Of a DNA stretch of 64,000 bases, positions 1,770 to 58,912 are shown in pieces (the first letter of the stretch is position 1; each line of letters starts with the position of its first letter). The translations under genes were made by a program, and so were the position numbers. Location of the stretch: the NCBI GenBank assembly GCA_002269645.1, contig NIVC01001592.1, forward strand, positions 62,001 to 126,000, written 5' to 3'. This DNA comes from Macrostomum lignano. Taxonomy: Eukaryota. Below the pieces are notes generated by a model. It did not search any database. It was not told the origin of the DNA and saw only the letters and a list, made by a program, of their open reading frames with translations.

Positions 1770-4166
1770 ATGGTGAGTAGCATCGAGGATCTGCAAAATG
1801 CGGCGCCCCGATATCCGTTGATACAGAAAAACTATCGCGCGTTTCCCACAGACTCCAGTGACGGCAGTGACGCTGAGTCACTTAACTCCAGCGACAGCGA
1901 TGGCCAGGAACAGCCAGTTCTTGATCCCTGGCTACAGCTACCGTGGCACAACGGCGAACCCATCACGGGCACCATTGGTGAAGCTGTGTGTCATATCAAC
2001 GACTGCGCCATTGATCTTGGAATCCCAAGTAAAAAAATAACCAGACTTCTACGTCTTGTGCATTGTCTGGTTCCGGGAAGTCGAATTCCGCGCACTGCAA
2101 GAACTATGTGGCGGACGCTAAAGTCCGCCCAGAGTTACATCGGCTCCGCAAAATGCGTCACTGTGTGCAACGAGTGCTACGTAAACTACCGAGGAGACTG
2201 CAGTCAAAACGGTGGACATTGCAGTGACTGCGGATCAATGAGAGTCGCAAACTTCTGGGTTTTCAACATTAGAAAGCAGATCCGAACTTACATAGAGTCA
2301 TGTGGACTGCTGCATAATTTGACTTTTCCTTCCGACTTCAATCCGCACGAAGACACCATCCATTTCTACAACAGTCTGCACCTGTACAGACAGTTTCGGG
2401 AGTCGATAAACCTAGTTGCTAAGAGCGACCTCTCGTATACTCTGAGCTCTGATGGGTTTCCAGCACGGTCAACCAGCAAGGTAGAGGTGTGTCCTGTCTA
2501 CTTAAGCATCAACGAGGTTCACGATCATGTCAAGTTGCGCTATGTCATAATCTGTGGGCTCTGGGCTGCTAAGACCAAAGTGAGTTCAGCGGCTTTCCTT
2601 CCGGTGGTCGTCGACGCGCTGATTTCTTTACGCATCCGGGGCGTAACGTACACTGACGCTGATGGAGTTCAGCGTACGATACGCTTCCATGCGTTGCTAG
2701 CAATGTTTGACTCACCGGCTCGTGCAGATGCGCTCCGCATGCGACGATGCACGGCTATCTACGGCTGCGAGAAGTGCTACATTGCTACGCGTCTTCATCC
2801 TTCAGGCTCTGGGCGTGTCTTCGACGTCGGCTTAACGCCAGCAATGCAGAATGCTGCTCGACGTCTAGGTTGTCTGCAAACTGTCCTGCGGAGCATGGCA
2901 GATACGCGCAGATTAGTGGAGCAACACCTAGCAGGTGCTCGGCACCAGAACACAGACACATTGGGTGTCCGAGGCCACTCTCCGTTAGGACGCCTCCCGG
3001 GCTTTGACTTCATGCGCGGATGTCCGCCGTGTTACCTCCACCAGCTGCACCTAGGTCTGGTCCGGATGATAATGTACCAATTATTCCTGGTGCAGGCCGA
3101 GAAGCCGGACCGAGGAGAAACTAACTGTCCGGACCTGCACCGGCTTCAACGTCAGGTCGATGAGCCGCTGCTCCGCATCCGGCTGCCCATCAACGTCCAA
3201 CGCCATGAAGTGCGTCCACTGAGTGACCTCCGCAATTTCCGAGGGCACGAGTTTGAAATGTGGCTGATGGCCTACGACCCCCTCGTTTTGGAAGCCGTCC
3301 TACCACCCGCCCACTACCAGCATCTGTTACTTCTTTCCGCTGCAGCGTTCTGGATGACTGCCGATTATGCGCCTCTGTCTGAGTTGCGGCACGTAGAGAT
3401 TGCATTGCGCCACTTCCACGACAAACTGTATAGGTTGTACTCCTTAAGAGCACTAACCTATAATGCTCATCAGGTGTGCTGCCACATGCTGACATACGTC
3501 CATCTGGCCGGCTCTGCGCACCGCCTATCGGCTGGAATTTTCGAAAGCACGCACTTGCGCCTGCAAAAACGCCTGCATGGGACGCGGCGCACCGACGTCG
3601 AGCTGGTTGGCGCCGTGGAGCGCCACATCGGCACCATCCAAGCGCGAGCGCGACTGATAGGGCACGGGGATCAGCAAGACGAAGAGGAATTATTCCGTCG
3701 AACAGAAGTACTCACCCTTCCAGATGTCGTGCTTCGTCGACCGAAACGCTGGCAAGTCGGATGGCACAGTGCCACTCTGAAATCCGGTTGGACAATACGA
3801 ATTTTCACTCCCGGATGTCAGGATGCGGCAGGCTTCGTGGCCATCGAAGGTGACACTACGACGGATTTCCGATTCTGCCGAGTGCAAACCATCGAATGTC
3901 AAGGTGAGCAGGTTAGGCTCGGACTGCTCGTACTGCCAGTTCTCGCGGCCGTCGACCCGCTGGAGGAACTAGCACAGGTTGCCACAACGTCACCTAATCG
4001 AGGCTGTCGACTCGCGCACTTCCGAGTATTCGCATGCGATCCCTTCGGCGACTTGAGCTACCTCGGCGACCCGATTCATGTGGGGCTGCCACAGTTTCGT
4101 GGCGTTTGTGTCGTCACCGACACAAAAGTAGCTCTGCTGGCCCATCCGCAGTTGGGCTATTCGTAG
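1770..4166 (+). CDS. CACTA/EnSpm (Tnp2/Transposase_21-like) DDE transposase
   Basis: Uninterrupted ORF (track start is GTG at 1749; first ATG 1770). Motifs: CNEC..CSDC zinc-binding, LSSDGFP..S...V.PVYLSINE (first D), MFDSPAR (second D), CEKC, HQLHLG, YNAHQVCCH and GIFES (E). These fit the CxxC / H(3-4)H signature of CMC transposases. Confidence 0.88.
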   Translation: MVSSIEDLQNAAPRYPLIQKNYRAFPTDSSDGSDAESLNSSDSDGQEQPVLDPWLQLPWHNGEPITGTIGEAVCHINDCAIDLGIPSKKITRLLRLVHCLVPGSRIPRTARTMWRTLKSAQSYIGSAKCVTVCNECYVNYRGDCSQNGGHCSDCGSMRVANFWVFNIRKQIRTYIESCGLLHNLTFPSDFNPHEDTIHFYNSLHLYRQFRESINLVAKSDLSYTLSSDGFPARSTSKVEVCPVYLSINEVHDHVKLRYVIICGLWAAKTKVSSAAFLPVVVDALISLRIRGVTYTDADGVQRTIRFHALLAMFDSPARADALRMRRCTAIYGCEKCYIATRLHPSGSGRVFDVGLTPAMQNAARRLGCLQTVLRSMADTRRLVEQHLAGARHQNTDTLGVRGHSPLGRLPGFDFMRGCPPCYLHQLHLGLVRMIMYQLFLVQAEKPDRGETNCPDLHRLQRQVDEPLLRIRLPINVQRHEVRPLSDLRNFRGHEFEMWLMAYDPLVLEAVLPPAHYQHLLLLSAAAFWMTADYAPLSELRHVEIALRHFHDKLYRLYSLRALTYNAHQVCCHMLTYVHLAGSAHRLSAGIFESTHLRLQKRLHGTRRTDVELVGAVERHIGTIQARARLIGHGDQQDEEELFRRTEVLTLPDVVLRRPKRWQVGWHSATLKSGWTIRIFTPGCQDAAGFVAIEGDTTTDFRFCRVQTIECQGEQVRLGLLVLPVLAAVDPLEELAQVATTSPNRGCRLAHFRVFACDPFGDLSYLGDPIHVGLPQFRGVCVVTDTKVALLAHPQLGYS

Positions 4167-25664: not shown

Positions 25665-26729
25665 AGCGACGCGCAGCGGGCCAGCGTGCGCCGCGTTGAC
25701 TTGCTGTTCGAGCGAATCCGTCAGCGTCCAGGTCTCGGCGTTGTACAACAGGACGGTCTCGACCACCGCCTGGAACAGCGCCGACCTCTGGCGATCAGGC
25801 AGGGCCTCGGAATGCAGGACCGCCCTCACAGAGCGAAAGGCAGCCCAAGCGAGCCGCAGATCTTCGCGGACGTCAGGTGCCAGACCGCCGAGGTAGACTA
25901 ACTGCTGACAGCGCAGCGCGGAAGCTCCGTTACCTGCCCGTCAGCGCCTCAGCAGAAAATTGCGGCCTCGATGTCGCCCGGCACGCAGACCACAACGGTC
26001 TTCTTTGTGTTGACCACCAGGCCGACGCTCGCTGCAGCGCTAACCAGCTTGTCCAGCTGGCGCTGGGCGCCCTCTGCGGTCGAGGACAGCAGGGCGAGGT
26101 CATCAGCGTAGCCAAGCACGCTGAGACGTTTCTCCGGTTGAAGTCGACCCACGCGTCGCCACAGTAGGAAGCCGTCTTCGTCGGTAGGAAGAGCAGTTCG
26201 TAGCACCCAGTCAAGCACCAGGACGAACAGGAACGGCGCTAGAGTGTCCCCCTGGAGCACACCGGAGGATGTCTCGAAGGAGTCCGACAGCCGTCCGGCG
26301 TCATCACAGCTGCTCTGGTAGCACAGTACAACGCCATTATGGCTATCTACAACGCCATCTACAACGCCAACGCCGCCTTTAAGATCAGCGACGAGCGGAT
26401 CACTAACGCGGCACTCTATCACCGCGCCGGCCAAGTGCCCGTTTAAGTGAACTGCTGCGACTTCGGCGACTCCAGCTGGCAGGCGACATCATCCGCGCCG
26501 AGTCCTACTGCCCGCAGCCGGTGCAGGAGGTGCTGCTGCTAACGGTGCAGGCACCCTACCGGCGCGGCCAGGCCCGAACTCGGCGTTTCGTCGACTGCCT
26601 GCTGGCCGACGCTGGCGCCCCGGACTCTGCCGGCGGTGCGGTCTTTGTTCGCGCCCAGGCTCTGAAGCGTGCGCTGTAACGCTGCATTTTTCCACCTGAC
26701 AGCGTATTTTGTTGTTGTTGTTGTTGTTG
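25665..26729. mobile_element. 5'-truncated, 5'-inverted RTE-like non-LTR retrotransposon
   Basis: The minus-strand RT piece (GVLQGDTLAPFLF, GYADDL, TVLLYNAETW) is joined to a plus-strand 3' end with a (GTT)n tail. 8-bp TSD TTTTACTG at 25657-25664 and 26730-26737. Confidence 0.85.
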
Positions 26730-28434
26730 TTTTACTGGGGGAGGGCGTGTCCCCCTGTCCCCGACCTGTGGCGACGGCGGCGACGACGACCCTGGATCAA
26801 CGCTTAAATATGATGTACGTGCAACTCAATGCCACTAGGAACACTTCGTTATATAAGGACCTTAGTAGTCCTTGGTGCAACTATGCTCAGCAACATGTTA
26901 CAATTTCACCCAGAAACCATGCAGTGCAGGCAAAAAGTTTCAGCTTTAATCCAACATTTAATCTCTAGCTTTAATCTCTAGCCATAACTCTCCACTTTCC
27001 TCACCAGACTAAACTGGGGCCTGGAGCCAGACTAAAATTGCATCAACCCATGCACGTACATGTACAGTTGAGACGTGCTTGAACATGCTGCTGAATGTAG
27101 CTTTTTTAGATAAACTACATCATCATGCAGACGTGTGCGTTCTCTGTCGTTTGAAATTCAAAAAGCACTAGATGTACTCGTATAAACTGATTTTAGCGTT
27201 TCGGAGTATCAGTCTGCGCCCCGCAAGGGGGACCGCGGTGATGGCTAAATGCGTCACAAGTAAATTGATTTTTTAATGGATAGAGAAAATTAGCCAATAG
27301 AAAAATGGAAAAATGGATTTTGATTATTTCACCATCTTCAAGAGATACGGAATCAATTATTGAATTCACTCTGTCTGATTGCGTGACAATAAACGTTTTA
27401 GTTGAAGAAGGTGTAGTAGGGCATTATTTTAGGAACGGGAAATTTTGTGGGTTTAAATATGCTTTTACCCTACTATCAGTAGTTTCAACCCGGGAAAATA
27501 ATTAGAGCGGGGTTAAGTGGATAAAATTGGGGTTCCTTTAGAACTACAGAGCAGTTGGGCTCTCGGGAAAGAAAACTCGGACCTTCGTTGGAGTGTCTTC
27601 TCCTGTTTAAACTTAGAGATTTCACGAAGAAGTGGTAAGGAAAGGGAAATATAAGGGTTAGGCTTGCACAAGAGGAGTCTTGCCTCTAATTATTGGGAAT
27701 CTTGCCCAACGCACAACGGGAATAAAATTAGGGAATTAATGTAAAACAAAATAACCTTTTGTACGCATTCTCTTTATTATTAAAATATTTCCAACTGTTA
27801 ACTATAATCTTTGGTGTCCTGACTCACTTCTTTAATCTAAAATACTAGAATTAGGGAAAGCAGGAAACCTGGTGGCAGCGAAACTACCAAATCTCAAATC
27901 AGTACAGCAGATAATCCACTCATAATCCTTAGCAATAAGAACCAGTAACCTAAACCGCGAGGTACACGCCCATTCCAATTGGTGGCAGCTTAGAGGATTA
28001 GAATACCCGAGAAGCGCATACACTAGACTGGAGCTTAGGATTAGAAAAGGGATTAACGGATTAACTCCTATGTGCTGAAATTAGAACTAAAACTAACACA
28101 AATTTACTAATTAAGGTTCTAAATTAGAGAATTAATGTACATAGTCAGTTGATCTAAGATTGTCTGATCTCAGATTAACGGATTAACGGATTAGGAACGG
28201 ATTAACGCTCCTGAAAGGAATTTTAACTTAGTTTCTTCGCTAGAAGATTAGTAAAGTCTCAATTAAGACCAGAAGTAAGGCGGAAGTAATAAAATTAGAG
28301 TCACTGCTGTTTTATTAACTAAAGTCTTACCATTAGGCAATTTAGCAGCTAAATTCGGAGTCTTGCCAATTTACTGACCAAAATTATTAAACCAGAAGCG
28401 TTAATTCTAAAATCCAACCTAAAATTAAACTAAT

Positions 28435-29478
28435 ATGGAAGCTAATGACGTAGTAGAAGCACTGGCTGAAGGCATTAGAGACAGGCTAGACATTAGGAAA
28501 CATATTAGGATCCAAAAGTACACGCCTAATCAGGATATAGACGTGTGGATTCAGGCTTTCGAGCAGAGGTGTATCGCAGATGAGATACCCCCAGCTGAGT
28601 GGAAGAATGAGTTGCTGTCTAACCTAGATGTTCAGTCAGCGTTCGCTATCGTGACAAGGCTAAACTTAGACCCTAATCTAGCATACGCAAACTTTAAGGA
28701 CAGACTAATTGAGCGATTCACGCATGTAGGTAGTGCTCAAGAAGCTAGGGAAGAGTTCCGTAGTAGGTTCCAGTGCAAAACTGAGAGCACTGATGACTAC
28801 GCTGAGAAGCTAACAGAGCTAGCATGCAGGGCGTTTCCCCATCTAACTAACGATCAGAGACAGGAAGAGGTGGTGGAACAGTTCATTAGAGGTGTTAGGG
28901 TTGCCCCAGAGACTAGAGAGAAGCTACTGCTAGCTCAGGTAAACTCGCTTCAAGAGACACGTCGAGTCTTGCGACGTATCGAAATGGCGTACGCTATGTC
29001 TCGCCGAGGTAGAGACCCGCAGCAGTGTAAGGCAACTGGAGGAGAAGAAGCTGAGAATGGCTTGAAGGAATTAGTCCGCAAACAGGGTGAGGCGCTAGAG
29101 ACCCAGCAGAAGGTGCTTCAGGAGTTACTCCGACACCACCAGAGTGTTGAGCAAAAGGTCAAGCAGCAGCAGCCGTCAGGTCAGCAGCAGCAAGGCCAGA
29201 ATCAGCAGAGGCGTCCCCCAGTGAAGTGCAACAGGTGTGGCAAGCTAGGTCACATAGCTAAGAATTGTAGACAGCCACATCCGCAGAACCAGCTTAGGTA
29301 CCCGGCTCAGCAGCAAATGCAGTATCAGCAGCCGCAGTATCAGCAGCCGCAGTATCAGCAGCCGATGTACCCACAGCAGCAGATGCAGCCGCAGTACCCG
29401 CAGCCGCAATACCCTCAGCAGCAGAATTCGGGAAACGGAATAGACGGAAGCGTCGGAGGCAACGCTTTCCAGCAGTAG
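28435..29478 (+). CDS. gag: Gag with CCHC zinc knuckle
   Basis: 347 aa; capsid-like region, CNRCGKLGHIAKNC knuckle and Q/P-rich tail. Confidence 0.93.
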   Translation: MEANDVVEALAEGIRDRLDIRKHIRIQKYTPNQDIDVWIQAFEQRCIADEIPPAEWKNELLSNLDVQSAFAIVTRLNLDPNLAYANFKDRLIERFTHVGSAQEAREEFRSRFQCKTESTDDYAEKLTELACRAFPHLTNDQRQEEVVEQFIRGVRVAPETREKLLLAQVNSLQETRRVLRRIEMAYAMSRRGRDPQQCKATGGEEAENGLKELVRKQGEALETQQKVLQELLRHHQSVEQKVKQQQPSGQQQQGQNQQRRPPVKCNRCGKLGHIAKNCRQPHPQNQLRYPAQQQMQYQQPQYQQPQYQQPMYPQQQMQPQYPQPQYPQQQNSGNGIDGSVGGNAFQQ

Positions 29479-32400
29479 ATCCCTCACAGTCTGTAGCCTC
29501 ACAACCTGTAAATAGCAGCGATACTTTTTCTGTAAATAGTGAATTGAATTCTTCAGTGTATAACAGTAGGCATGCGCAAACATTTAATCAATCATTTAAT
29601 CAACCAAACATTTATTCTCAGCACTTTTCAAACGCACCACAACAGCAACCCTATTCTAGCAAGCAGCAGCTAAAACAACCAAAATTAACTGAACAAACTA
29701 AAAAACAAAGTTATGATCCGTACATCACTGGCAGCATTTTAAATAAGGAAATAGTTTATCTATTAGACACTGGCAGTAATAGAAATATCTTAGGACGCGA
29801 AACCTGGAAGCATCTTTTCACTGGCAAGAATAGGCATCTAATTAAGCATTGGGACAATAGAATTGTTTCTTTTATGGAAGAGCCTATTCCAATTAAGGGT
29901 TTCGTAGTTATTAAGGCAACATTTGGCGATTTCGAAGAAGAAGTTGAGTTTCTCTTATGTGACGCAGATGTAGACAATGTAATAGGTGTGACGTTTGTCC
30001 AAAAATATTGTAATACCATTGACTTCGATGCAGGAATGCTAACCATGAAACAAGGAACTAGAATTCCGCTTCGATCAACCAGAGCTAAGCCTCAGGTTAG
30101 GAGAATCTATGTCGCAGAAAAAACGACAGTTTCAGCCAATAGTTCAGGATTAGTCAAGGTCAGATTAGCAGCAGGTAGTGAAACTAATTTCGGAGTGCCA
30201 TCAGTTGTTGAGCCACTCAGATCAGGATTGAAGACTAGAACAGAGAAAGTAACTGTAGTGCCAAGTTTAGTAACTCTAAGACAAGGGGAAGCTTATTTAG
30301 AAGTAATTAACACCAGTTCACAGGAAGCTAAAGTACCAGCATCAGCATTAGTTGGGATGGCTAAACCACTCTTAGCTAGCGAGCTTAACTATCTGAAGGA
30401 ACAGCCAGAAGAGGAGCAGAATAAGAGCACGCAGTCTTGCGGAAGCAGAGAAAAGATCAGTCAAGTGCAGGAGAAGTCAGAAGACTGGATTAGTGAAATC
30501 AACATAGGAACTGAACTGACTCAGGAACAGAGACAAAAGGTGATCGAGGTCGTCAAGGAACATTCAGCAGCTTTCTCGCAGCACGAGTTAGACTTAGGCA
30601 GAACGCATTTAGTCACACATGAAATTATCTTGAAGGATAACAACCCAGTTCAGATACCAGCTAGGAAAATTCCACCTCATTGGATCAAGGAGGTAGATGA
30701 ACAGTTAGATCTCATGTTGGCTAGAGGCATAATTAGGCCTAGTTACTCGCAGTACTCGACTCCATTAGTCATAGTACCTAAGAAAGACGGTTCGCTTAGA
30801 TTAGTTAACGACTATCGAGCACTAAACAATAAATCGGAGTACTTTCCGTATCCAATAACTAATATCAATGAAACATTTTCATGTCTCCATGGAGCCAGTC
30901 AATTCTCTACGTTAGATCTATTTTCGGGATATTATCAGATAGCTCTTAGGGAAGAAGATAAGTGCAAGACTAGCTTTCCAACTTTACATCGAGGCTCGTT
31001 TGAGTACGAAGTATTGCCAATGGGACTGCAAGGAGCTCCAGGAACTTTTCAAAGGTGCATGAACTTAGTTCTTAAGGACATTGCACAGAAGTTCGCCATA
31101 GCTTACTTAGACGATGTAATAGTTTATAGTGCAGACTTTGAATCGCATTTAGAACACCTGAAAGAAGTGCTCAAGAGACTAATACAAGCTAACATGAAAC
31201 TAAAGGCTAAGAAATGTCACCTTTTCAAATCAGAATTACAATATCTAGGACACGTCATAGGCAAAGCAGGAATTAAGAGAGATGCGTCGAAATTAGAATC
31301 AATTAGGAACTGGCCGAAACCTAAATCTGTGACAGAGCTTCGAAGTTTTCTCGGACTCTGTAATTACTATAGAAAATTCGTTAGAGATTTTGCCGAGGTA
31401 GCAGCACCACTCTGTGAGCTAACGAAGAAGAACATCAAATGTATCCAGGACAAATGGACCAGGATCCATGATGAATGCTTCGAGTTGTTGAAGGAACGGA
31501 TGTGTTCCGAAGAAGTGCTTGCTTACCCAGAGTTCAATACAGACCCCCAAGTTTATTTTGTGTTAGACACTGATGCATCAAATGTCAGAATTGGGGCGGT
31601 CTTGAATCAAGTTCAGAGCGACGGCATAGAAAGACCGATCGCGTATTATAGTCGGAAGATGAGGCAGTCAGAAACTAGATATCCGATTACGAGGAAGGAG
31701 CTTCTAGCGATTGTTGACTCGCTGAAGTATTTTAGATTTTACCTCGTAGGAAAACATTTTAAGGTGCGCACTGATCACAATGCCCTAACCTGGTTGCTTC
31801 GCCAAACCGAACAGACAGGCATTTTAGGTCGTTGGATCGAAAGACTTTCCGAATTTGATTTTGAGATAGAACATAGGAGTGGCCCTAAACATGTGAATGC
31901 TGACGCTCTATCCAGGATCCCTGATCCTCAACCGGAAGAGATGTCCCCACATGCCAGGTCGCTAAGCTGTAGGGCAACTGTGAATACAGACCCAGCATCA
32001 GCTTTTACTGTCAGCTCAGGCAATTCCGCGTTCGCTGAAACCTGTAGCTCGAGCAGTGGAGTTCCGTCATGCTGTTCGTCACAAGACACTGTCACGAACC
32101 GACACAATACTCCGATCTTTAGTAGCAGTAGGCTAGACAATAGACAGGGACAGGAGCCTAAAACCGGAAATCCGCCTGCATGCAATGCCCTGCTCAGTGA
32201 CTATCTCCGTAGCCCAGTTCGCCGTGACCAATTGATCGCAGCACAGCTAGCCGATCCGGCGGTAGGCTTTGTTAGAAATTTAATTGAGAATGACTCGCCT
32301 AAACCGACATTGCAAGAACGACTAGAGTTAACCCACGACTGTAGGAACCTCTTAGGTTACTACGAGTTGCTCATAATTGAGGACGGTGTACTCAAAGTAG

Positions 32401-34094
32401 ACTTATCTATGGGGCAGACTGATCCAAAGGTAGTGTTGCCCAAGTCTCTGGATAGTGAAGTCTTTCACCAATTCCATGATTCACCGTTAGCGGGACACCT
32501 AGGTCGAGATAAAACTTATCAGAGAATTAAAATTCGATTTTGGAGGCCAGGATTAGCAACAGCAGTCGAACGCTACGTAGCCAAATGTAAATCATGCCTA
32601 GAAAGCAAAACTAGACGAAGAATTAAGGCACCAATTCAGAACTATCCTGTAGTCGAACCATTCGGTAGATTGCACATAGATCTAATAGGACCTATTGGCC
32701 AAACTAGCAAATCAGGAAACAAATATGTACTTTCAGTCATAGACAGCACTAGCAAATTTCCATTCGCATTCGCAATTAGGAATCAGAAGGCTAAAACAGT
32801 TATCAAAATTCTACAAGAACGAGTTTTCGCTGATTTTGGGATTCCACAATGGATTCACACAGACCAGGGAACACAGTTCACTGGTAGGGCCTTTAAGAAA
32901 TTTTTAGACCTCTATGGCATTAGACACACTCGAACAACTAGTTATCATCCGCAGAGCAATGGCTTAGTAGAAAACCTTAATAAGCAGATTAAATCAATTC
33001 TCACCTGTTTACTGGAGAAGGAGCATTCCAACTGGGACGTTCTGTTGCCAGGTTGCATAACAGCTCTGAGAACCAGCACGCACACTGCCACAGGATTTAG
33101 TCCGCACTATTTAGTCTTTGGACGAGAGGCCAGAATGCCCTGTGACAATGAGCTGAATGAGCCAAAGCAGTTCCAGGATTTGCCATCTTATGTCCAGGAT
33201 CATCAGCAGAATCTGCAGGAAGGCCAAGAACTAGCAAGAAAGAGATTAAAATTAGTGCAACAAAACCGTGAGCAGGAGTACTCTAATAAGCCTAAGCCGA
33301 AGACATTGCCTGTAGGAAGCTTAGTATTTATTAATAATCCAGTAATTGCTAACACAGAGGCTAACAAATTTCACAGAAAACAAAGGGCAGTTTACGAAAT
33401 TGTAGAACAATTATCAGAAGTAGTCTTTAAGATTAGACCAGTCACCAAAAATAAGAAGGCTAGAAAGGAAGAACTTATTATGCATAGGGATAATTTAATG
33501 AAAGTACCGCAAGCAGATTATCCGGAAGAAGAAGCGAGTACTAAGCCAAAAGAGCAGAGGAAACAATACAATAGGGAACAGTTAGCTAATAGTCAGCCGA
33601 ATGTGTACAATGACTCAGAAAGTGAAGACGAGTACGAGGACGCAGTGCAGTTTATGCCAGTGCAGCATCAAAATAATGAGCAGTTTATGCCAGTACAACA
33701 TCAAAATAATGAGCAGTTTATGCCAGTACAGCATCAAAATAATGAGCAGTTTATGCCAGTACAACATCAAAATAATGAGCAGTTTATGCCAGTACAACAT
33801 CAAAATAATGAGCAGTTTATGCCAGTGCAAAATCAAAATAATGTGCAGTCAGCGCCAAATCAACAAGTGCAGCATCAAAATAATAATCAAAATAATTCAG
33901 TAGGTGTACAAGGAGTTATGCCGGTACAATTAAATAATAACAATAATAATCTAGGGATTAATTTAGAAGCTAGGCCAGCTAGAGAGCGTCATGCTCCAGA
34001 TAGATTAACTGTCAGGCCAAACCAGAAAAGTTATGTACAGAGGATAGCGGAGTTGTTTAACCCATTTAACCTCTTGCAGCCGAAATCTCAATAA
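29430..34094 (+). CDS. pol: Pol polyprotein (protease, RT, RNase H, integrase) in the -1 frame relative to gag
   Basis: LLDTGS protease; YLDD RT; DTDAS..ELLAI..RTDH RNase H; H..H..C..C plus D..D..E integrase. The frame is stop-free back to the GGGAAAC heptamer at 29430 (the track start at 29544 is a TTG). Confidence 0.93.
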   Translation, partial: GKRNRRKRRRQRFPAVDPSQSVASQPVNSSDTFSVNSELNSSVYNSRHAQTFNQSFNQPNIYSQHFSNAPQQQPYSSKQQLKQPKLTEQTKKQSYDPYITGSILNKEIVYLLDTGSNRNILGRETWKHLFTGKNRHLIKHWDNRIVSFMEEPIPIKGFVVIKATFGDFEEEVEFLLCDADVDNVIGVTFVQKYCNTIDFDAGMLTMKQGTRIPLRSTRAKPQVRRIYVAEKTTVSANSSGLVKVRLAAGSETNFGVPSVVEPLRSGLKTRTEKVTVVPSLVTLRQGEAYLEVINTSSQEAKVPASALVGMAKPLLASELNYLKEQPEEEQNKSTQSCGSREKISQVQEKSEDWISEINIGTELTQEQRQKVIEVVKEHSAAFSQHELDLGRTHLVTHEIILKDNNPVQIPARKIPPHWIKEVDEQLDLMLARGIIRPSYSQYSTPLVIVPKKDGSLRLVNDYRALNNKSEYFPYPITNINETFSCLHGASQFSTLDLFSGYYQIALREEDKCKTSFPTLHRGSFEYEVLPMGLQGAPGTFQRCMNLVLKDIAQKFAIAYLDDVIVYSADFESHLEHLKEVLKRLIQANMKLKAKKCHLFKSELQYLGHVIGKAGIKRDASKLESIRNWPKPKSVTELRSFLGLCNYYRKFVRDFAEVAAPLCELTKKNIKCIQDKWTRIHDECFELLKERMCSEEVLAYPEFNTDPQVYFVLDTDASNVRIGAVLNQVQSDGIERPIAYYSRKMRQSETRYPITRKELLAIVDSLKYFRFYLVGKHFKVRTDHNALTWLLRQTEQTGILGRWIERLSEFDFEIEHRSGPKHVNADALSRIPDPQPEEMSPHARSLSCRATVNTDPASAFTVSSGNSAFAETCSSSSGVPSCCSSQDTVTNRHNTPIFSSSRLDNRQGQEPKTGNPPACNALLSDYLRSPVRRDQLIAAQLADPAVGFVRNLIENDSPKPTLQERLELTHDCRNLLGYYELLIIEDGVLKVDLSMGQTDPKVVLPKSLDSEVFHQFHDSPLAGHLGRDKTYQRIKIRFWRPGLATAVERYVAKCKSCLESKTRRRIKAPIQNYPVVEPFGRLHIDLIGPIGQTSKSGNKYVLSVIDSTSKFPFAFAIRNQKAKTVIKILQERVFADFGIPQWIHTDQGTQFTGRAFKKFLDLYGIRHTRTTSYHPQSNGLVENLNKQIKSILTCLLEKEHSNWDVLLPGCITALRTSTHTATGFSPHYLVFGREARMPCDNELNEPKQFQDLPSYVQDHQQNLQEGQELARKRLKLVQQNREQEYSNKPKPKTLPVGSLVFINNPVIANTEANKFHRKQRAVYEIVEQLSEVVFKIRPVTKNKKARKEELIMHRDNLMKVPQADYPEEEASTKPKEQRKQYNREQLANSQPNVYNDSESEDEYEDAVQFMPVQHQNNEQFMPVQHQNNEQFMPVQHQNNEQFMPVQHQNNEQFMPVQHQNNEQFMPVQNQNNVQSAPNQQVQHQNNNQNNSVGVQGVMPVQLNNNNNNLGINLEARPARERHAPDRLTVRPNQKSYVQRIAELFNPFNLLQPKSQ

Positions 34095-34097
34095 ATC

Positions 34098-34820
34098 ATG
34101 GCCGAAGCCCCTCTTCGGGTGTATCCAAGGAAACGCATCTATGGCCAAGGAAGAAGACAGGAGCAAGATGAGAATGAGCCCCCGCGAATTAGGGCCGTAC
34201 AATTGGCAGAGCGAGGAGAAGAACATAAGAGGCGGAAATTAGAGCAACCGGAAGAGGGCGGTGAGCCCGAAGGAAAACTGGTCGTGGACATAGACTTGGA
34301 AGAGTTGGAAAGGGAGACGGAAAGAGAGGAAGAAGCGTTCCGAGAGGAGATGGCCAGATTCATGGAAGAGGTGCGACAGTATGAGGAAGGAAGCCAGCAG
34401 GAAGATGGATTAGAGGAAGAAGAAGAGCAACAGCAACCAGCAGAGGAGCCAGCCGAGCCGCAAGTAGACCCAGAGGAGCAAAAGAGGAAGTTTCGACGCT
34501 GCCGCCGGGCCCTCAAGAAGTACATACTAAGGACGGGTAAGACCGGTATGTTCGAAACCGAATTACCCGAGGCCTGCGCGTGTTTCTTAACGACAGCAAC
34601 CAAGGAGGAGGCAATTAAGTGCTACGAAATAGCCTGTACCTATTGCCTTCAGTATGCGGAAAGTAACGCACGCGGCCCCTTCAGTATGAGCGTCACCATG
34701 GAGCAACTAGAGTTCTTGGCGGGAAAATTCGACCCGGAGCGCCAAATGATCCCGGTCAACGGCTTATTGTATGCATCGGCGCAAAACACTAATAATCTTC
34801 GGCCTGTACACGACATCTAA
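34098..34820 (+). CDS. Third ORF of the Gypsy element, 240 aa, acidic and hydrophilic, function unknown
   Basis: ATG lies 3 nt after the pol stop and inside the LTR boundaries. Basic NLS-like patches (PRKR, HKRRK), Glu-rich middle and Cys-containing C-terminal domain. No signal peptide or TM helix is evident. Confidence 0.75.
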   Translation: MAEAPLRVYPRKRIYGQGRRQEQDENEPPRIRAVQLAERGEEHKRRKLEQPEEGGEPEGKLVVDIDLEELERETEREEEAFREEMARFMEEVRQYEEGSQQEDGLEEEEEQQQPAEEPAEPQVDPEEQKRKFRRCRRALKKYILRTGKTGMFETELPEACACFLTTATKEEAIKCYEIACTYCLQYAESNARGPFSMSVTMEQLEFLAGKFDPERQMIPVNGLLYASAQNTNNLRPVHDI

Positions 34821-36079
34821 CTAGAGTAATCGAACTGCATTTTACTATATATTGGCTATTTTTACCATCTCTTGGGACAAATTGCATTAAATCGCTGCCT
34901 TGCTTTAATCATAGCACTTCCTTTTTTTTTACACAAGGACCTGTCCACATTTTACGTTGCGTGCAGTTTTCTAATTTTGATATGTCTACATGTCATTCTT
35001 AATAGTGCCAACATGACTCAATCCGATGCTAATAAGACACACACCACTTATGCTTATATCTTGTTGTTGTAGTGTGCTGAAAATTTTTTTTCTCTTTGTT
35101 TTGTTTTAGCAATATAGCAATATGCAACTTAATATCAATAATTCATTATATATCCTGCATTGTACTCTAATTGTCTAGGAATTCATGTTTACGCATTACA
35201 TTTTCATATTCATAATAGTTGCTTACTTAATCCCTATATTCAGTACATCGCTGATAAGCGCACTAATACTTATTACGTAACTAAAATTTTGAAAATAAAT
35301 ATAATCATCAATGTACAAAAGGGGGTTTTGCACATTTGTTTAGCGAGGGGGAGGTGTAGTAGGGCATTATTTTAGGAACGGGAAATTTTGTGGGTTTAAA
35401 TATGCTTTTACCCTACTATCAGTAGTTTCAACCCGGGAAAATAATTAGAGCGGGGTTAAGTGGATAAAATTGGGGTTCCTTTAGAACTACAGAGCAGTTG
35501 GGCTCTCGGGAAAGAAAACTCGGACCTTCGTTGGAGTGTCTTCTCCTGTTTAAACTTAGAGATTTCACGAAGAAGTGGTAAGGAAAGGGAAATATAAGGG
35601 TTAGGCTTGCACAAGAGGAGTCTTGCCTCTAATTATTGGGAATCTTGCCCAACGCACAACGGGAATAAAATTAGGGAATTAATGTAAAACAAAATAACCT
35701 TTTGTACGCATTCTCTTTATTATTAAAATATTTCCAACTGTTAACTATAATCTTTGGTGTCCTGACTCACTTCTTTAATCTAAAATACTAGAATTAGGGA
35801 AAGCAGGAAACCTGGTGGCAGCGAAACTACCAAATCTCAAATCAGTACAGCAGATAATCCACTCATAATCCTTAGCAATAGAAACCAGTAGCTTAGCCGC
35901 GGTTACACGCCCATTCCAAAGGATTATCACAGTTTGCAGTTTTTTTAAAAGCTTTTGTGTTGCTGAATTTCTATATAACAAAATTAGGCATAAGCAACAG
36001 TTATATTTTCTCCCCCGTAATTTACGAATTCAGGAACATCTCTCAATTTCAAGTGCCATTTCCTATCGAGCAAGGGACA

Positions 36080-36417: not shown

Positions 36418-36858
36418 CAACAACAACAAAATACGCTGTCAAGATGGCAAAAGTCAGCGTCACAGGGTGCGCTTCATGGCTTGGGCGCGAACAAAGGCCG
36501 CGCCACCGGCAGTGTCCGGGGCGCCGGCGTCAGCCAGCAGACAGTCGACATAACGCCGAGTTCGCACTTGACCTCGCCGGTAGGGTGCCTGCAGCGTGAG
36601 CAGCAGCACCTCCTGCACCGGCTGTGGGCAGTACGACTCAGCGCGGATGAGATGGCCTGCGAGCTTGGACGTGGCAGGCCAGCGCGGCGATAGAGTGCCG
36701 CGTTGGTGACTCGCTCGACGCTGATGTTGAAGGCGGCGCGCAGCAGGCCAGCGTGCACCGCATCGACTTGCTGTTCGAGTGAGTCCGTCAGCGTCCAGGT
36801 CTCGGCATTGTACAGCAGGACGGTCTCGATTACCGCCTGGAACAGCGCCGCCCTCGCA
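36418..36858 (-). mobile_element. 3' fragment of the same RTE-like LINE family
   Basis: Highly similar to pieces of 25665-26729 but collinear. (AAC)n tail on the plus strand. 11-bp TSD AATAATACTAA at 36407-36417 and 36859-36869. Confidence 0.87.
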
Positions 36859-38034: not shown

Positions 38035-39045
38035 ATGCCTCCTGCCAGGCTGTGGCTACTGGCAGTCACTGCTGTGAACCTGGCGGCTCTGGCCAGGTGC
38101 CAAGCTCAAACCAGCGATCAGGTTTTTCGGCAAGCCGATGTGCTCTGCGCCCCGGACGATTACCCGTCCGCGATCGCTCGCCTCACCGTCTACTCGGAGA
38201 CTCACTGCGCCATCATCGCCTCGGAGGAGGCCAACACTGGTGTTCTGGTGGCGCAGTTCAACAAGGCCACTCTCACCTGCTCCGTCTTCAAGTACCAGTC
38301 CATCTGTCAAAATCTTGTGCCCGGAGAACTAACCGACTGTGTGGTGTTCTTTAGGTTTCCCATCGACCTGGGGCAGCTGAACCCGAAGCTCAACAATGTG
38401 TGGCTGGGCGACCCCGTGACTCGATTGGAGAACCTGGTGTGCCAGGCGTTCGAGGACGCCAACAGGCTGATGCCATTCGACATTGAGTGGTCCAGCGAGG
38501 GCGCCGTTTTCGACGGTCTTTCGTCCCACGCCGTGTTGAACCAGTCCAGCCTGAACTTCTCTGCCGGTGCCACCTGGCTGATAAGATTCAAGCGCCTGCC
38601 CCAGACTCAGCCCATTCTGGAGTTCTTTCCCTGCAACGACTCGAGTATGGTTTCATGGAAAGGCATCCACATGGTCGAGTGGGATGCGCCCAGGAAGATG
38701 TACGTCCGCGCCAACCGGATCACGGGCAGCCCGCTGCCCTACTTGTACTCGGCCATCGACCAGCTGTCCGGCGACCCGAACGAGTGGCTGAATCTTGGCT
38801 TCACCACAGTCGGTGGCTCCTACAAGTTCTTTGTGATGAACGCCTTCCTGCCGCCCAACATGATTTGGCCGTTCGATGACAACGACTTTTGCTCCGTGCA
38901 GAACGGCAACCTCTGCCTGTACCTGGGTAAGCGAGTGAACCAACCGGCTGACCAGTTCTTCAAGGGCACCGTGAGGGCGGTGGCCTTCGCCAGCGGGAGC
39001 CTCACGGAGCAGGAGATTCGCGAATTCTTCGACCTCGTTCAGTGA
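38035..39045 (+). CDS. Secreted protein with a C-terminal concanavalin-A/LamG-like beta-sandwich domain
   Basis: Intronless 336-aa ORF with a hydrophobic N-terminal signal peptide and Cys-containing N-domain. FDGLSS..., W..(L)GFT and FKG.....AF....LTEQEI are LamG-like motifs. TTACAG acceptor 2 nt before the ATG; AATAAA at ~39057. Confidence 0.72.
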   Translation: MPPARLWLLAVTAVNLAALARCQAQTSDQVFRQADVLCAPDDYPSAIARLTVYSETHCAIIASEEANTGVLVAQFNKATLTCSVFKYQSICQNLVPGELTDCVVFFRFPIDLGQLNPKLNNVWLGDPVTRLENLVCQAFEDANRLMPFDIEWSSEGAVFDGLSSHAVLNQSSLNFSAGATWLIRFKRLPQTQPILEFFPCNDSSMVSWKGIHMVEWDAPRKMYVRANRITGSPLPYLYSAIDQLSGDPNEWLNLGFTTVGGSYKFFVMNAFLPPNMIWPFDDNDFCSVQNGNLCLYLGKRVNQPADQFFKGTVRAVAFASGSLTEQEIREFFDLVQ

Positions 39046-44960: not shown

Positions 44961-45034
44961 GTTTTCAACGGAATAGCATGGCATTTATGTTTCAATTTTC
45001 TAGCGTAAAGAAGACCGATTGCGAATTTTGTATA

Positions 45035-45653
45035 TACTCAGCAACAGCTAAACCCCCCCCCCCCACTCACGCTGTCACACGGCCTAAAAGTTTTGTATGC
45101 CATCGGTGACTCAGAAATGTGTGAAGGCTGCCGCCGCCAGACGCGAGCGCAAAGTGCAGCATGGGGGATTTGGGGAGGGGGTGGCGCAACTCAACCCACT
45201 GGTGGCTGCATTGCTGCAAAGTTTCTGCCATTTGCTACGACAACCTTTGGCGGCCAGCAGAACTGCATGCTTCAAGACGACAACGCTGCGCCACATCGAG
45301 CAGCACACGTGCAGCTGCTGAAGGAGCAGCTCGGCATTCGCACATTGAACTGGCCGTCAAAGTCTCCAGACATGAACCCCATCGAGCATGTCTGGGACTT
45401 TGTAAAGGAAGAGTTCAGCAGGATGCCCCACAGAATGCTGAACAGTTGCGACTGGCGGTGCTGAATGCCTGGCAGCAGCTGCCCCAAGAGTTCATCAACC
45501 GGCTGGTGATCAGGATGCCACGACGAGTCACGGCACTTTTGCATGCTCGTGGTTCCTACACACGATACTGAGACTAGAATTAAAGACATTGCTTAACTTT
45601 TGTGCCCGTGTGACAGCGTGAGTTGGGGGGGGGGGTTTAGCTGTTGCTGAGTA
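45035..45653 (+). mobile_element. Internally deleted Tc1/mariner element
   Basis: About 60-bp TIRs (TACTCAGCAACAGCTAAACCCCC...) flanked by TA. Frameshifted transposase C-terminus QDDNAAPH...WPSKSPDMNPIEHVW (DD34E type). Confidence 0.9.
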
Positions 45654-46984
45654 TATATTCTGTTCCCTGGGTATCCAACATACTAGATAGCTCGTATTGT
45701 GCTCATGAGTTTGCTCTGCCAAACCTGAATCAACGAGTCTTTTTTCTCTTGCATCTTAAGATAGATGATGTCGCGAATTTCTTAGTTCATCTGCACTTCT
45801 CTCTATTCACTCTGTTTTCTCTCCATCTCTGTCTGGTTCAATCTTGTTATCCTTATCTCTGTCCTTCCTGGTGGGAAGCTCTCTTTGTCCAATTTAGAAG
45901 CTAAAAATCGCAACCCGGTTTATTGATAATTCAGTTTCAGTAGTAATGTGACCTTCGGTCAGACAGTCACGGTACAAGCACATTTTACGAACAAAAAATA
46001 ATGCACAATAGCAAGCAGAGATCAACAAAGCCTAGTTACTTTGCACCTGTTCTACTCGTTATGTACAGGCTCTGCTCATTGTTTGTCTGCATCTTGGCTC
46101 TATTAGGTGGAACTGTCTTTCTAAAACACTTATTAAAATGCTCCGAAACCTCTCCTGCACCGTTGGCGCAGGGTGGGGCCATCTGTCTAAATAGTCTCCA
46201 AAGTTTGCCTGCCAAAATTCCATCTGCCTATAGCTTTAATTTGATCTTGGTTGCGAGCTGACTAGGCAGAGTACGAGATGCAAGAGGCAGTGCGTGGGCT
46301 GGGGGGGGGGTTGGTGTACCCGAGCTGCACATACTGTGCGATAATAGCTCGAGCACTTAGCGGCTTCTAAATACTTGAGCAGACGACACACCCCAGCACT
46401 GTGCAAACAGTACTGAACAATACTGGGCTGGCCTCAGAGTAAGCGAGAGCTGAGAAAATAATATTGGCCTATGCGTGCCGTGCTCTTAAATTTAATTGAG
46501 CTGCTCTGACAGCTGCTCATCGCTCTGGCTGTGAGCTTAGCAGACTTTCAGTGGGGTGCTTATCAACTGATTATGGTTGCTCAGTTTTTCTCTGATAGAC
46601 TGACAGACTTCTCTTATCTGGTCATTTTGTGATTCGTTACTTATCAGGGACTAACAGGTAAGACTGCTCACCTTTCATGAAGTCAAAGTGACGCGACTGC
46701 ATGATTTATTAAGAAATTCTTCTCGACAATATCTTAGTAAAAGTGCATACGTGCTTACCACTTATCAGTTATTGCATGAGCTTTTATGGAAGACACACAA
46801 CAAACCACTCGACTAAGAAGCTTGATCATTGACTGGCTAATTTATAAACACGTTTTAAACAGTTACGTTTTATTTCGCGTCTGAAAAGCTACTTTTCTGT
46901 AACCTTTGATTACTAGATAACTGACTGCTTGGATAGATACTTGTTGATAGAGTTGCATTTGAGTAGTTACTAGATGGAAGAGTA

Positions 46985-56520: not shown

Positions 56521-57625
56521 CTTTGTTATTTGTCTAATTAAATTGGTAATATTAGTTATATCAATTTTTACAATAAATAGATCAATAGGCCCTGTTTTAA
56601 GACTTTAAAAATTACTTTTTAAATCTTGATTATTATGTTGTTATACTAGTAGTATACATCTTACACTGCAATTAGTTTTTCACTTGAATTCTTTGCAAAC
56701 ATGAAAGAAATTTGTTAAACAAGTATAGGCCTAATTTTGTATATATGTGCTTTGCTTATATTAGTACCAGACTCCGGATAGTATACATGTACGCCGGAAT
56801 TTTCTGGTGTACAGAGGGACCTAAATTACACATTGATGTACAACTTGGCATACAAAGGCACCTGGCGTGCCCTCTTGGTATATAGCTTGGCATATAGAGA
56901 TTGCCAAGACCAGCAGGTGGGACCAAAAGTTCCGAGTCCCAACAATCAATCTGCATTATTAGTATACAAAAATGATTAAGTTTGCATTTGGCATAGTTTC
57001 CATGTACATAGTTACAGTAGCTAAATTTTGATCAGAAAGAATAGCCGGCCCTTTACAAAAAAATTGGAAGACTAAATTTAAAAAACTGGGTGAAACTTTT
57101 CCAAGAAAGTAAAAGTAAAACAAAAATAGTTAAAATGAACTAGTTCTCTACAGTTTAGTAAAAAAGATTTTTAGTTTTAACATATAGGTTGTTTGAATAT
57201 TAAAATTTTGCAAGCTTTTAATATTAGTTGTAATTTGTAATTTTTATTTTGGCATATTTTTGTATGCGATACAAAGTTCGTTGGTATACATTGGCATGCA
57301 TGAGCTACGTAAGCAATTTTCATTCTGGCGTACAGTGGTACACAATCCTAACCCTGGTATTAGTATAACAAAATATTAATTAGGATATAAGAAAACTTAG
57401 AAAAGGTCCTAAAAATTCAAAATATTTATCACTATATAGACACTTGTATTAGCAATTTAACTGGATAAATAACAAAATGGTTATTTGTCTGGTAACTAAA
57501 AGAATAACCACTGCCTTTTATTCTGTCACTAGATAAATATCAATTGCTTTTTTCATTTGCCTTTTGCATGCATATTAGCATATCATGGGACCTTCATTAT
57601 TGAAGTCACTATTAGTAGTAGATAT

Positions 57626-58912
57626 CACTATCCTTAACCTACCTCCGCTTCACCTATTTATTAGGGCGGAGGCTATGAAGTCTGCCTCCCGGCTTATCAG
57701 AGATAAAACGTTAAATAACGCGCCCTCTGGCTTTATGCCAATGAAAACATTAATCCCGCATATGGACTTTGTCCGCCGCGACCTTAACAACATCCACATG
57801 GACCTGGGCAATGTGGATAGCCGACCTCCCGCCCTCAACATCAGGAGGGGCTTCAAGACCGCCATCCCTGGCCGAGACAACATTCCGCTGGATGTCGGTG
57901 TGAACCGGCGCAGCCAGGGCATTCACTGCTTCACCGACGGCTCGCTGTTCAACGGCCGCGCTGGAGCGGGTATTGCCATTTTCCACGAGGGTAAGATGCT
58001 TCTCCAGGAAAGTCTGCACCTCGGTGAGAACACCTCAGTTTTCCAAGCTGAAATTTGCGCCATTGAGCAGTGTGCCCAGCAACTGTTTCAGGCGAACATT
58101 AATAATTTTGACATTAATTTCTACACTGATAGCCAAGCTGCTATTAAGGCCTTAACCACTGAGAATATCTCCGCTGCTACAGTATCTCAATGCCACCGCA
58201 GTGTGCAATCTCTCTCAGTCCTTAACAGGATTAGAATTATCTGGACACCTGGTCACAGCAACATCCTGGGCAACGAGCTCGCGGACTCTCTCGCCAAGGA
58301 GGGCAGCAACCCAGACGGCAACCACCGTCTGATGAGGCTACCCACCCCCAGGTCGCAAGTCACCCGCCATATCAACAGGTGGCTCCATCAGCAGCACCAG
58401 CTCCACTGGAACAGCTGCACCGAGTACAGGCAGAGCCGCTCTGCCATGCCTAACCTGAACAGGAAAGTCTCTGATTATCTGATTTCGCTTAACAGAACCG
58501 ACCTCAGGGAGATGTGCATGGTCCTAACCGGCCACGGATTCTTCCAGAGACATATATCGTTGCAAACCGGTTGCCCTCCCACCTGTCCCTTCTGTGGCAT
58601 AGGAGAGGAGACCGCGGAGCATCACGTCACCTTCTGCCCTTACTTCAACAAGGCGCGGCACAAATACCTCGGCCACCCCCAGCGGATGGACGAGCTGACC
58701 ACCGCGGACAATATCCGAGACCTCCGCGCCTTCGTCCGGGACTCCGGCCGGATGAGGGTCGCCGATGCCTCCACTGCGGACCTGCCGACTACTGGCGGGG
58801 ACTGGGCGCACCCCCAAGGCTAATCCTTGTGCTCTTTTACCTTGGGGTTGCGATAGGGGCCTCGCGGCCTATTCGCGGCGCCTGCGCCCCCCGTCAGTAG
58901 TAAGTAAGTAAG
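57626..58912 (+). mobile_element. 5'-truncated RNase H-bearing non-LTR retrotransposon (I/R1/LOA group)
   Basis: RNase H FTDGS..FQAE..YTDSQ..W.PGH..GNELAD; C-terminal LTGHG and CPFC..E...H...C knuckle; (TAAG)n tail. 13-bp TSD TAGTAGTAGATAT at 57613-57625 and 58913-58925. Confidence 0.9.

Follow-up and report, generated by a model that had tools for sequence, protein, structure and literature searches.

We identified a third gene, ORF3, behind pol in a Ty3/Gypsy long terminal repeat (LTR) retrotransposon of Macrostomum lignano. The element lies within a stretch of 64,000 nucleotides (the window; positions 62,001 to 126,000 on the forward strand of contig NIVC01001592.1, assembly GCA_002269645.1), and all coordinates below are those of the window. 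It is near certain that ORF3 is a real gene and that it is not env. Our tentative reading, judged from sequence, is that it could encode a separately expressed nuclear regulator that activates transcription of the element or counters its silencing. To our knowledge, animal LTR retrotransposons have few known regulatory proteins.

The acceptor AG at 34078-34079, the ATG at 34098, 18 nt downstream of it, and the 240-aa open reading frame (ORF) had been noted in an earlier prediction made from the letters alone (the original prediction), and all were confirmed in the sequence. The same holds for its view that ORF3 is not env: the protein lacks both N-glycosylation sequons and hydrophobic segments (top 19-residue Kyte-Doolittle mean 0.54). 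In seven ORF3 alleles the highest such mean was 0.50-0.65, the N-terminus was basic-acidic, and there was neither a signal peptide nor a transmembrane segment. No similarity to viral fusogens was found with Pfam or Foldseek at E 0.001, although this absence does not exclude it.

ORF3 gave 145 matches in genome G000 (matches, not copies), down to about 35% identity, and 60 ten-kb stretches, picked to span this range, were fetched. Between alleles, the C-terminal domain (C-domain) has a proportion of nonsynonymous differences (pN) of 0.19-0.20 against a synonymous proportion (pS) of 0.77-0.91, indicating purifying selection. Between two backbones of the family, integrase has a pN of 0.034 at a pS of 0.77 and ORF3, for the same pair, 0.40 at 0.77. 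By these measures ORF3 evolves faster than integrase yet is clearly constrained. The original prediction had conceded that it would fall if ORF3 were not conserved among family members, or if it matched a known env or a captured host gene fragment without selection; the matches and the selection on ORF3 point the other way on both counts. The purifying selection speaks against a captured host gene fragment, and the sole strong match among 1.84 billion representatives was a chimeric gene model of the ORF3 locus.

No ORF3 homologue was found among 5.8 billion proteins, and none outside this species in the databases searched. A 17-sequence ORF3 profile run against the 1.84 billion representatives returned three matches, the chimeric model and two unrelated repeat proteins, and a profile of the domain from sister families (described below) returned one, from M. 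lignano itself. Pfam held no significant match to ORF3, to the sister domains or to those of more distant families; a PDB sequence search gave nothing at E < 0.05, and Atlas gave no result for ORF3 and no usable match for P0004. The public gene model P0001 joins the N-terminal half of ORF3 (34164-34500) to a neighboring host ORF (38035-39045) and is probably an annotation artefact.

AlphaFold predicts a disordered N-terminal part, an acidic helix and a confident five-helix C-domain (pLDDT 90.8, pTM 0.83). The features of the gene and its protein are as follows:

34098..34820, plus strand: ORF3, open reading frame of 240 aa
34227..34238, plus strand: basic motif KRRK resembling a nuclear localization signal (NLS), aa 44-47
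34278..34298, plus strand: LVVDIDL with an acidic flank, a motif resembling a SUMO-interacting motif (SIM), aa 61-67
34296..34391, plus strand: acidic amphipathic helix, aa 67-98, net charge -9 (AlphaFold and sequence)
34470..34787, plus strand: five-helix C-domain, aa 125-230, with a basic first helix (net +9) (AlphaFold and sequence)

The NLS-like basic motifs on which the proposal of a nuclear factor was based are present, as KRRK and other basic clusters, and the N-terminal parts of ORF3 proteins are Arg-rich and RS/SP-rich. The Cys-richness attributed to the C-domain is not a family trait, as one Cys is invariant across 16 C-domains and the L057 allele has a single one. A zinc finger was rejected because the Cys residues are not conserved.

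Of 16 family proteins, 12 have a SIM-like psi-psi-D-psi sequence at a single position of the alignment (shuffle rate 0.01-0.12 each). Its core sits in a disordered region with an acidic flank, a resemblance at the motif level only. SUMO has a role in transposon silencing. Acidic FxxLL-like helices occur as EFLRMLLD in the second backbone and as DFLKALLD at the N-terminus of a distant-family ORF3, and we take these to resemble activation motifs. Most sister-family ORF3s contain VIDLT, FIDLT, YIDLT or IINLD; VIDLT is the core of the PIAS1 SIM according to the available text of PMC3901395.

Expression of ORF3

The host element is a young, intact Ty3/Gypsy LTR retrotransposon with LTRs, a target-site duplication, a primer-binding site (PBS), a polypurine tract, and gag followed by reverse transcriptase (RT), RNase H and integrase. 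The best structural matches of its RT are Ty3. Its features are listed below, with a slash marking a splice boundary:

27412..27977, plus strand: 5' LTR (TG...CA), with the 4-bp target-site duplication AAGG just before it
27871..27888 and 35814-35831, plus strand: PBS-like hairpin motif GGTGGCAGC-N2-9-CTACC in U5, conserved in the window's family and sister families
27980..27989, plus strand: primer-binding site (LTR/PBS analysis)
28275..28280, plus strand: candidate cis donor GAA/GTAAGG in the leader, one of five GTRAG sites from the TATA box to the acceptor
28435..29478, plus strand: gag (domain matches to Retrotrans_gag and a CCHC knuckle)
29298..34094, plus strand: pol frame with RT, RNase H and integrase, -1 relative to gag (domain matches)
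29430-29436, plus strand: slippery heptamer GGGAAAC in gag (sequence)
33268..33273, plus strand: weak second donor candidate C/GTGAGC within integrase, found in both backbones
34056..34061, plus strand: conserved branch-point-like TTTAAC (family sequences)
34074..34080, plus strand: splice acceptor TTGCAG/C, fitting the host trans-splice motif YTNCAG given in the available text of PMC8629364
34821..35354, plus strand: U-rich 3' untranslated region (UTR), the first 350-500 nt of which travel with the ORF3 allele
35294..35299, plus strand: conserved AATAAA 5' of the polypurine tract, a candidate poly(A) signal for an ORF3 mRNA
35345..35354, plus strand: polypurine tract
35355..35918, plus strand: 3' LTR, with AAGG directly after it

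The acceptor before the ORF3 ATG is conserved as predicted, with YTNCAG/C in 46 of 49 family loci; two of the three misses are mis-picked ATGs and the third reads CTAACAG. Among the 758 sense-strand AGs of the element, the one at 34079 alone has YTNCAG, 20 nt free of AG and a YTRAY branch motif, under a filter that we devised with this site in view. The branch point that the original prediction had chosen (a copy at 34065-34070) is absent from all 14 second-backbone loci, and the conserved branch-like motif, judged by reading the printed locus sequences, is the TTTAAC at 34056-34061. In sister families, 18 of 20 loci have a single YTNCAG/C in the same position behind the integrase tail motif, with an ATG 7-30 nt downstream. 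The acceptor is in pol phase 2 in the sister families and in phase 0 in the window's family, and since it is kept in different phases, constraint on the pol protein does not explain it. We consider it quite likely that ORF3 expression uses the 34080 acceptor.

The predicted GTAAGG donor at 28275 is present, and GAA/GTAAGG would be a workable donor in the window's family, but sister families have no conserved equivalent, and no conserved donor common to the families was found in leader or LTR. C/GTRAGC sites 5' of the acceptor were tried as a shared donor and rejected; they lie at non-homologous places across families and may be mere Arg-Glu/Lys codons. With no conserved donor, spliced-leader trans-splicing becomes a rival to cis-splicing. 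About 30% of M. lignano genes are trans-spliced, with YTNCAG as the top acceptor motif, according to the available text of PMC8629364, which makes trans-splicing at least as likely as cis-splicing here. Cis acceptors can also carry the YTNCAG motif, and the window's family has GTRAG sites upstream of the acceptor. Trans-splicing is the route that we tentatively favor, at somewhat under an even chance; cis-splicing is possible if rather doubtful, and other routes seem unlikely.

Upstream of the 3' LTR, AATAAA lies at a distance of 49-66 nt in 38 of 48 loci (two more have AATAAA overlapping ATTAAA) and at none from -400 to -100, the 48 loci stemming from only a handful of lineages. The conserved acceptor and the conserved AATAAA together make a stand-alone ORF3 mRNA likely. 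No TATA box was found within 900 nt of ORF3 in the window's family.

The original prediction offered readthrough from pol as an alternative on the grounds that TAA ATC ATG is in frame with pol. The arrangement is real in the window, but it is a minority trait, found in 4 of the 33 loci with a regular gap between stop and ATG (2 nt in 18, 4 nt in nine, 3 nt in three, and 1, 5 and 6 nt once each; eight more loci, irregular or without a pol end, fall outside this count). Readthrough is rejected as the family mechanism because only these four copies are in frame. ORF3, whatever its function, could still be read from unspliced genomic RNA, through termination at the pol stop and reinitiation as well as by readthrough. 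The spacing of 1-6 nt in 33 loci would suit such a scheme, as would the sight of only unspliced contigs in the runs discussed below. Reinitiation explains neither the acceptor in two phases, nor the fused families that lack the stop, nor the AATAAA, and we regard expression without splicing as very improbable.

Allelic cassettes and related families

In our alignments, ORF3 and its proximal UTR form a swappable cassette on near-identical backbones. Copies that are 96-100% identical to the window across gag and pol have ORF3 DNA that is only about 68-74% identical and a proximal UTR that cannot be aligned. Between alleles, identity drops from 94-98% to 70-78% at 34080, the first base after the AG, and the divergent block ends 25-130 nt before the LTR. 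Lineages were counted by single linkage at 85% DNA identity in the 32 of 61 loci that hold all three regions, giving one lineage for RT, two for integrase, nine for the N-terminal part of ORF3 and 12 for the C-domain. All 53 loci with a C-domain give 21 lineages, a count inflated by old decayed copies. Sister families have the same cassette pattern, with integrase DNA at 99% and the domain at 51-75% amino acid identity. Saturated silent sites indicate that the alleles are old and have been reassorted by recombination rather than changed rapidly in recent times, and the polyploid history of the host could supply some of the allele lineages.

The element family is mosaic beyond ORF3 as well: the second backbone (L047-L059, L083-L087) is 92-95% identical to the window in RT and RNase H DNA, 78-80% in integrase and about 84% in gag.

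The alleles might act between competing elements, each blocking or excluding copies that carry another allele, so that their diversity would come from element-versus-element conflict. Many old alleles do coexist on one backbone, and several have been active recently: LTR pairs that are at least 99.3% identical occur in copies of five allele classes. For such a self-recognition factor we found neither a paired second gene nor a target matched to the allele; mosaic alleles with open frames also exist (L034, L043), and we hold this explanation to be very unlikely.

The sister families, whose integrase core is 64-68% identical to that of the window's family, have an ORF3 domain at the same place as the window C-domain. 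In most of their ORF3s (L091-L110) TQT-like motifs, absent from the window's protein, stand just before the helical domain; presumably these resemble LC8 dynein-light-chain sites. In distant families an ORF lies 200-540 nt past pol with a helical domain at its end (17 of 20 loci). This domain matches the window C-domain in register (hhalign 86%, E 5e-6), and a second profile comparison gave E 3e-4, with 0 of 200 block shuffles as good. These profile comparisons show the window C-domain to be homologous to the ORF3s of the distant families. The motif LSLSASDE is common to the N-termini of one sister ORF3 (L105) and one distant ORF3 (L134), a possible link between the groups. Of 15 distant-family loci, six have a TATA box lying 72-106 nt ahead of the ORF3 ATG, with CCAAT boxes visible upstream, and only three have YTNCAG before ORF3.

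These differences bear on the possibility that ORF3 is an RNA regulator like Rev or CERV, which would bind unspliced genomic RNA, shield it from the acceptor and the early poly(A) site, and promote its export. Genome RNA must skip both conserved signals, the N-terminal parts are rich in Arg and in RS/SP, and the proximal UTR and the allele stay together, as expected of a protein-RNA pair; CERV provides a precedent (PMC10309623, available text). The distant homologues, with TATA promoters and mostly without an acceptor, would have less need of such a protein, and the linkage of the UTR also follows from recombination needing homology. Apart from the terminal hairpin, no conserved UTR element was found, and the domains of CERV, in the available description (PMC10309623), differ. 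An RNA regulator seems unlikely to us.

Proposed function and known systems

In the nuclear regulator that we tentatively prefer, the ORF3 mRNA would run from the 34080 acceptor, used in cis-splicing or spliced-leader trans-splicing, to the AATAAA that precedes the polypurine tract. Having neither the polypurine tract nor the 3' repeat, this short mRNA would not be reverse transcribed into DNA. The protein would be imported into the nucleus, where it could bind SUMO through aa 61-67, contact co-activators through the acidic helix and touch nucleic acid with the first, basic helix of its C-domain. Many old cassette alleles may persist because rare versions escape host recognition, and template switching may shuffle them onto common backbones. 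A bolder version of this scheme, which we think improbable, is a host-style operon in which the spliced-leader machinery and the early poly(A) site would release an mRNA holding only the hypervariable cassette; it would encode an anti-silencing factor that binds SUMO and belongs to a new fold family, with dozens of old alleles kept by an arms race with the host. The "novel nuclear accessory factor" of the original prediction survives in that ORF3 is non-env, selected, preceded by a conserved acceptor and built like a nuclear factor, but not in its readthrough, its branch point or its Cys-richness across the family.

Several observations weigh against a separately expressed nuclear regulator. 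Foldseek found no fold match at E 0.001, and the best VIA score (Z 6.5) was within background, with cullin repeats, AppA SCHIC and eIF2B-epsilon tied; we take these matches as a common helical arrangement. The window's SIM-like LVVDIDL differs from the canonical VIDLT, the L099 group has no SIM-like motif, and xIDLT is also found five times in 18,236 aa of Pol frames. The loci, which were selected to cover the diversity of ORF3, are not independent of one another. Alleles and LTR types do not go together (L042 has an LTR 98-99% like that of the window with another allele, and L031 the same allele with an LTR at 91-92%), which speaks against allele-specific binding to the LTR. No run that contains the sequence is recorded as RNA; in four that may be RNA by our guess, the listed joints (15 of 18) include no junction to 34080 and the listed loose ends (24 of 88) no leader sequence, and unspliced contigs of X1 and X10 run across the acceptor. 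Since these data are contigs assembled from mixed copies, which drop rare forms, splicing is something that we infer. None of the 40 scored matches, from 47 candidates for spliced DNA copies, begins at 34080. The comparison of the sister-family domain with the window C-domain (P 0.02, with 17 of 100 shuffles equally good) does not establish homology. Finally, sister-family ORF3 is fused in frame to pol in 14 of 18 loci, which suits a role with integrase.

Such a role would make the domain a C-terminal appendage of integrase, fused or supplied in trans, that brings the integration complex to the nucleus or to SUMO-marked chromatin. Besides the fusion itself, the alternation of fused and split states on the tree of RT plus integrase and the NLS-like and SIM-like motifs would agree with it. 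The fused families nevertheless retain the acceptor and an internal ATG, so that a free form is under selection, and the families with proven domain homology are all split, with ORF3 apart from pol. Alleles swap freely on an unchanged integrase, and rows for the LEDGF domain in Foldseek were non-significant (E 2.7-5). We think an integrase partner unlikely.

Several known systems resemble ORF3 in part. Errantiviral and retroviral env, which is made from spliced subgenomic RNA, shares the position after pol, the acceptor near the ATG and allele swapping; ORF3 differs in having no signal peptide, membrane segment or sequon, and its AATAAA before the polypurine tract suggests another 3' end. Tas/Bel1 of foamy viruses, as described in the available text of PMC517496, is likewise a nuclear regulator encoded by an additional gene close to the 3' end; it has an acidic activation region, and its gene has its own transcription unit, as the distant ORF3 homologues with an internal TATA promoter may have. 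No sequence or fold link to Tas was found, the ORF3 element is a Ty3/Gypsy element without env, and the window's family has the acceptor in place of a nearby TATA box. In our tentative reading ORF3 would work like Tas without belonging to the Tas family, a resemblance of motifs only.

CERV, from the C. elegans element Cer1, is likewise an orphan nuclear protein of a Gypsy element, with a spliced mRNA, an NLS and structured domains joined by flexible linkers. In the available text of PMC10309623, however, it has 517 aa, shares exons with gag and has three domains and a conserved Cys loop, whereas ORF3 lies after pol, its product has a single helical domain, and no Cys cluster is conserved in it. 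LTR elements of bdelloid rotifers have a non-env third ORF in the env position, described as typically spliced in the available text of PMC5408684. Those ORFs encode recognizable enzymes or membrane proteins and are family-specific, in contrast to the unassigned helical domain with many alleles in one family found here. VANC of Arabidopsis VANDAL transposons is, like ORF3, an element-encoded accessory factor quick to diversify, but it belongs to DNA transposons and co-evolves with its target DNA (PMC12859917, a meeting report, available text), whereas here the LTR type does not follow the ORF3 allele.

Since non-env third ORFs are already reported in rotifers (PMC5408684) and plants (PMC7264820), as far as the available texts go, the kind itself is known. 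We found no description in the literature of the ORF3 domain, of an allelic cassette or of a trans-spliced retroelement gene, although subscription papers, Repbase and supplements 2-5 of PMC12801592 may annotate them. The available text of PMC12801592 contains neither "orf3" nor "splic"; its named M. lignano clusters are Mag, CsRN1, Gmr1/Osvaldo and Mdg3, and its supplement 1 holds counts only. ORF3 represents a new family of domains that spans a large Gypsy clade, in which expression occurs in what look like three ways: from an acceptor, from an acceptor with fusion to pol, and from an internal promoter. Three questions follow: does a retroelement use spliced-leader trans-splicing for a gene further downstream, does a transactivator or anti-silencer encoded by a Gypsy element bind SUMO, and what maintains so many old alleles of a single gene when the backbone is uniform? 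The host offers transgenesis and LTR reporters, which makes these questions directly testable.

Other features of the element and the window

We take the PBS to be of the tRNA-Leu type. The two LTRs are 98.6% identical, and every difference falls within the last 45 or so nt (27933-27977 versus 35875-35918), where each end resembles other copies of the family; this clustering at U5 looks like recombination, not age. Some sister-family LTRs have full PBS duplicates near the LTR end. In the interval between the AATAAA and the polypurine tract, a short hairpin (TG/TACAAA-GGGG-TTTGCA, 35311-35335) is conserved in all aligned alleles except one interrupted copy. The pol tail (33650-33850) has a 45-nt tandem repeat of the FMPVQHQNNEQ type that differs in length between copies.

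A joint with canonical GT..AG ends, antisense to the element (29506-33004, minus strand), is present in three runs (X5, X6, X10). The loose ends linked to it match an inverted-repeat element of about 350 bp with an 8-bp duplication. Of 41 loci only L065 has this element, so a spliced antisense transcript probably runs across the L065 copy. Inverted arms of 224 nt, 85% complementary, flank the element at a distance (26474-26697 and 36442-36665). Elsewhere in the window, labels given by eye are a transposase-like ORF of 798 aa at 1770-4166, a small element with 59-nt inverted ends at 45031-45657 and an RNase H-like ORF of a non-LTR element at 57585-58823.

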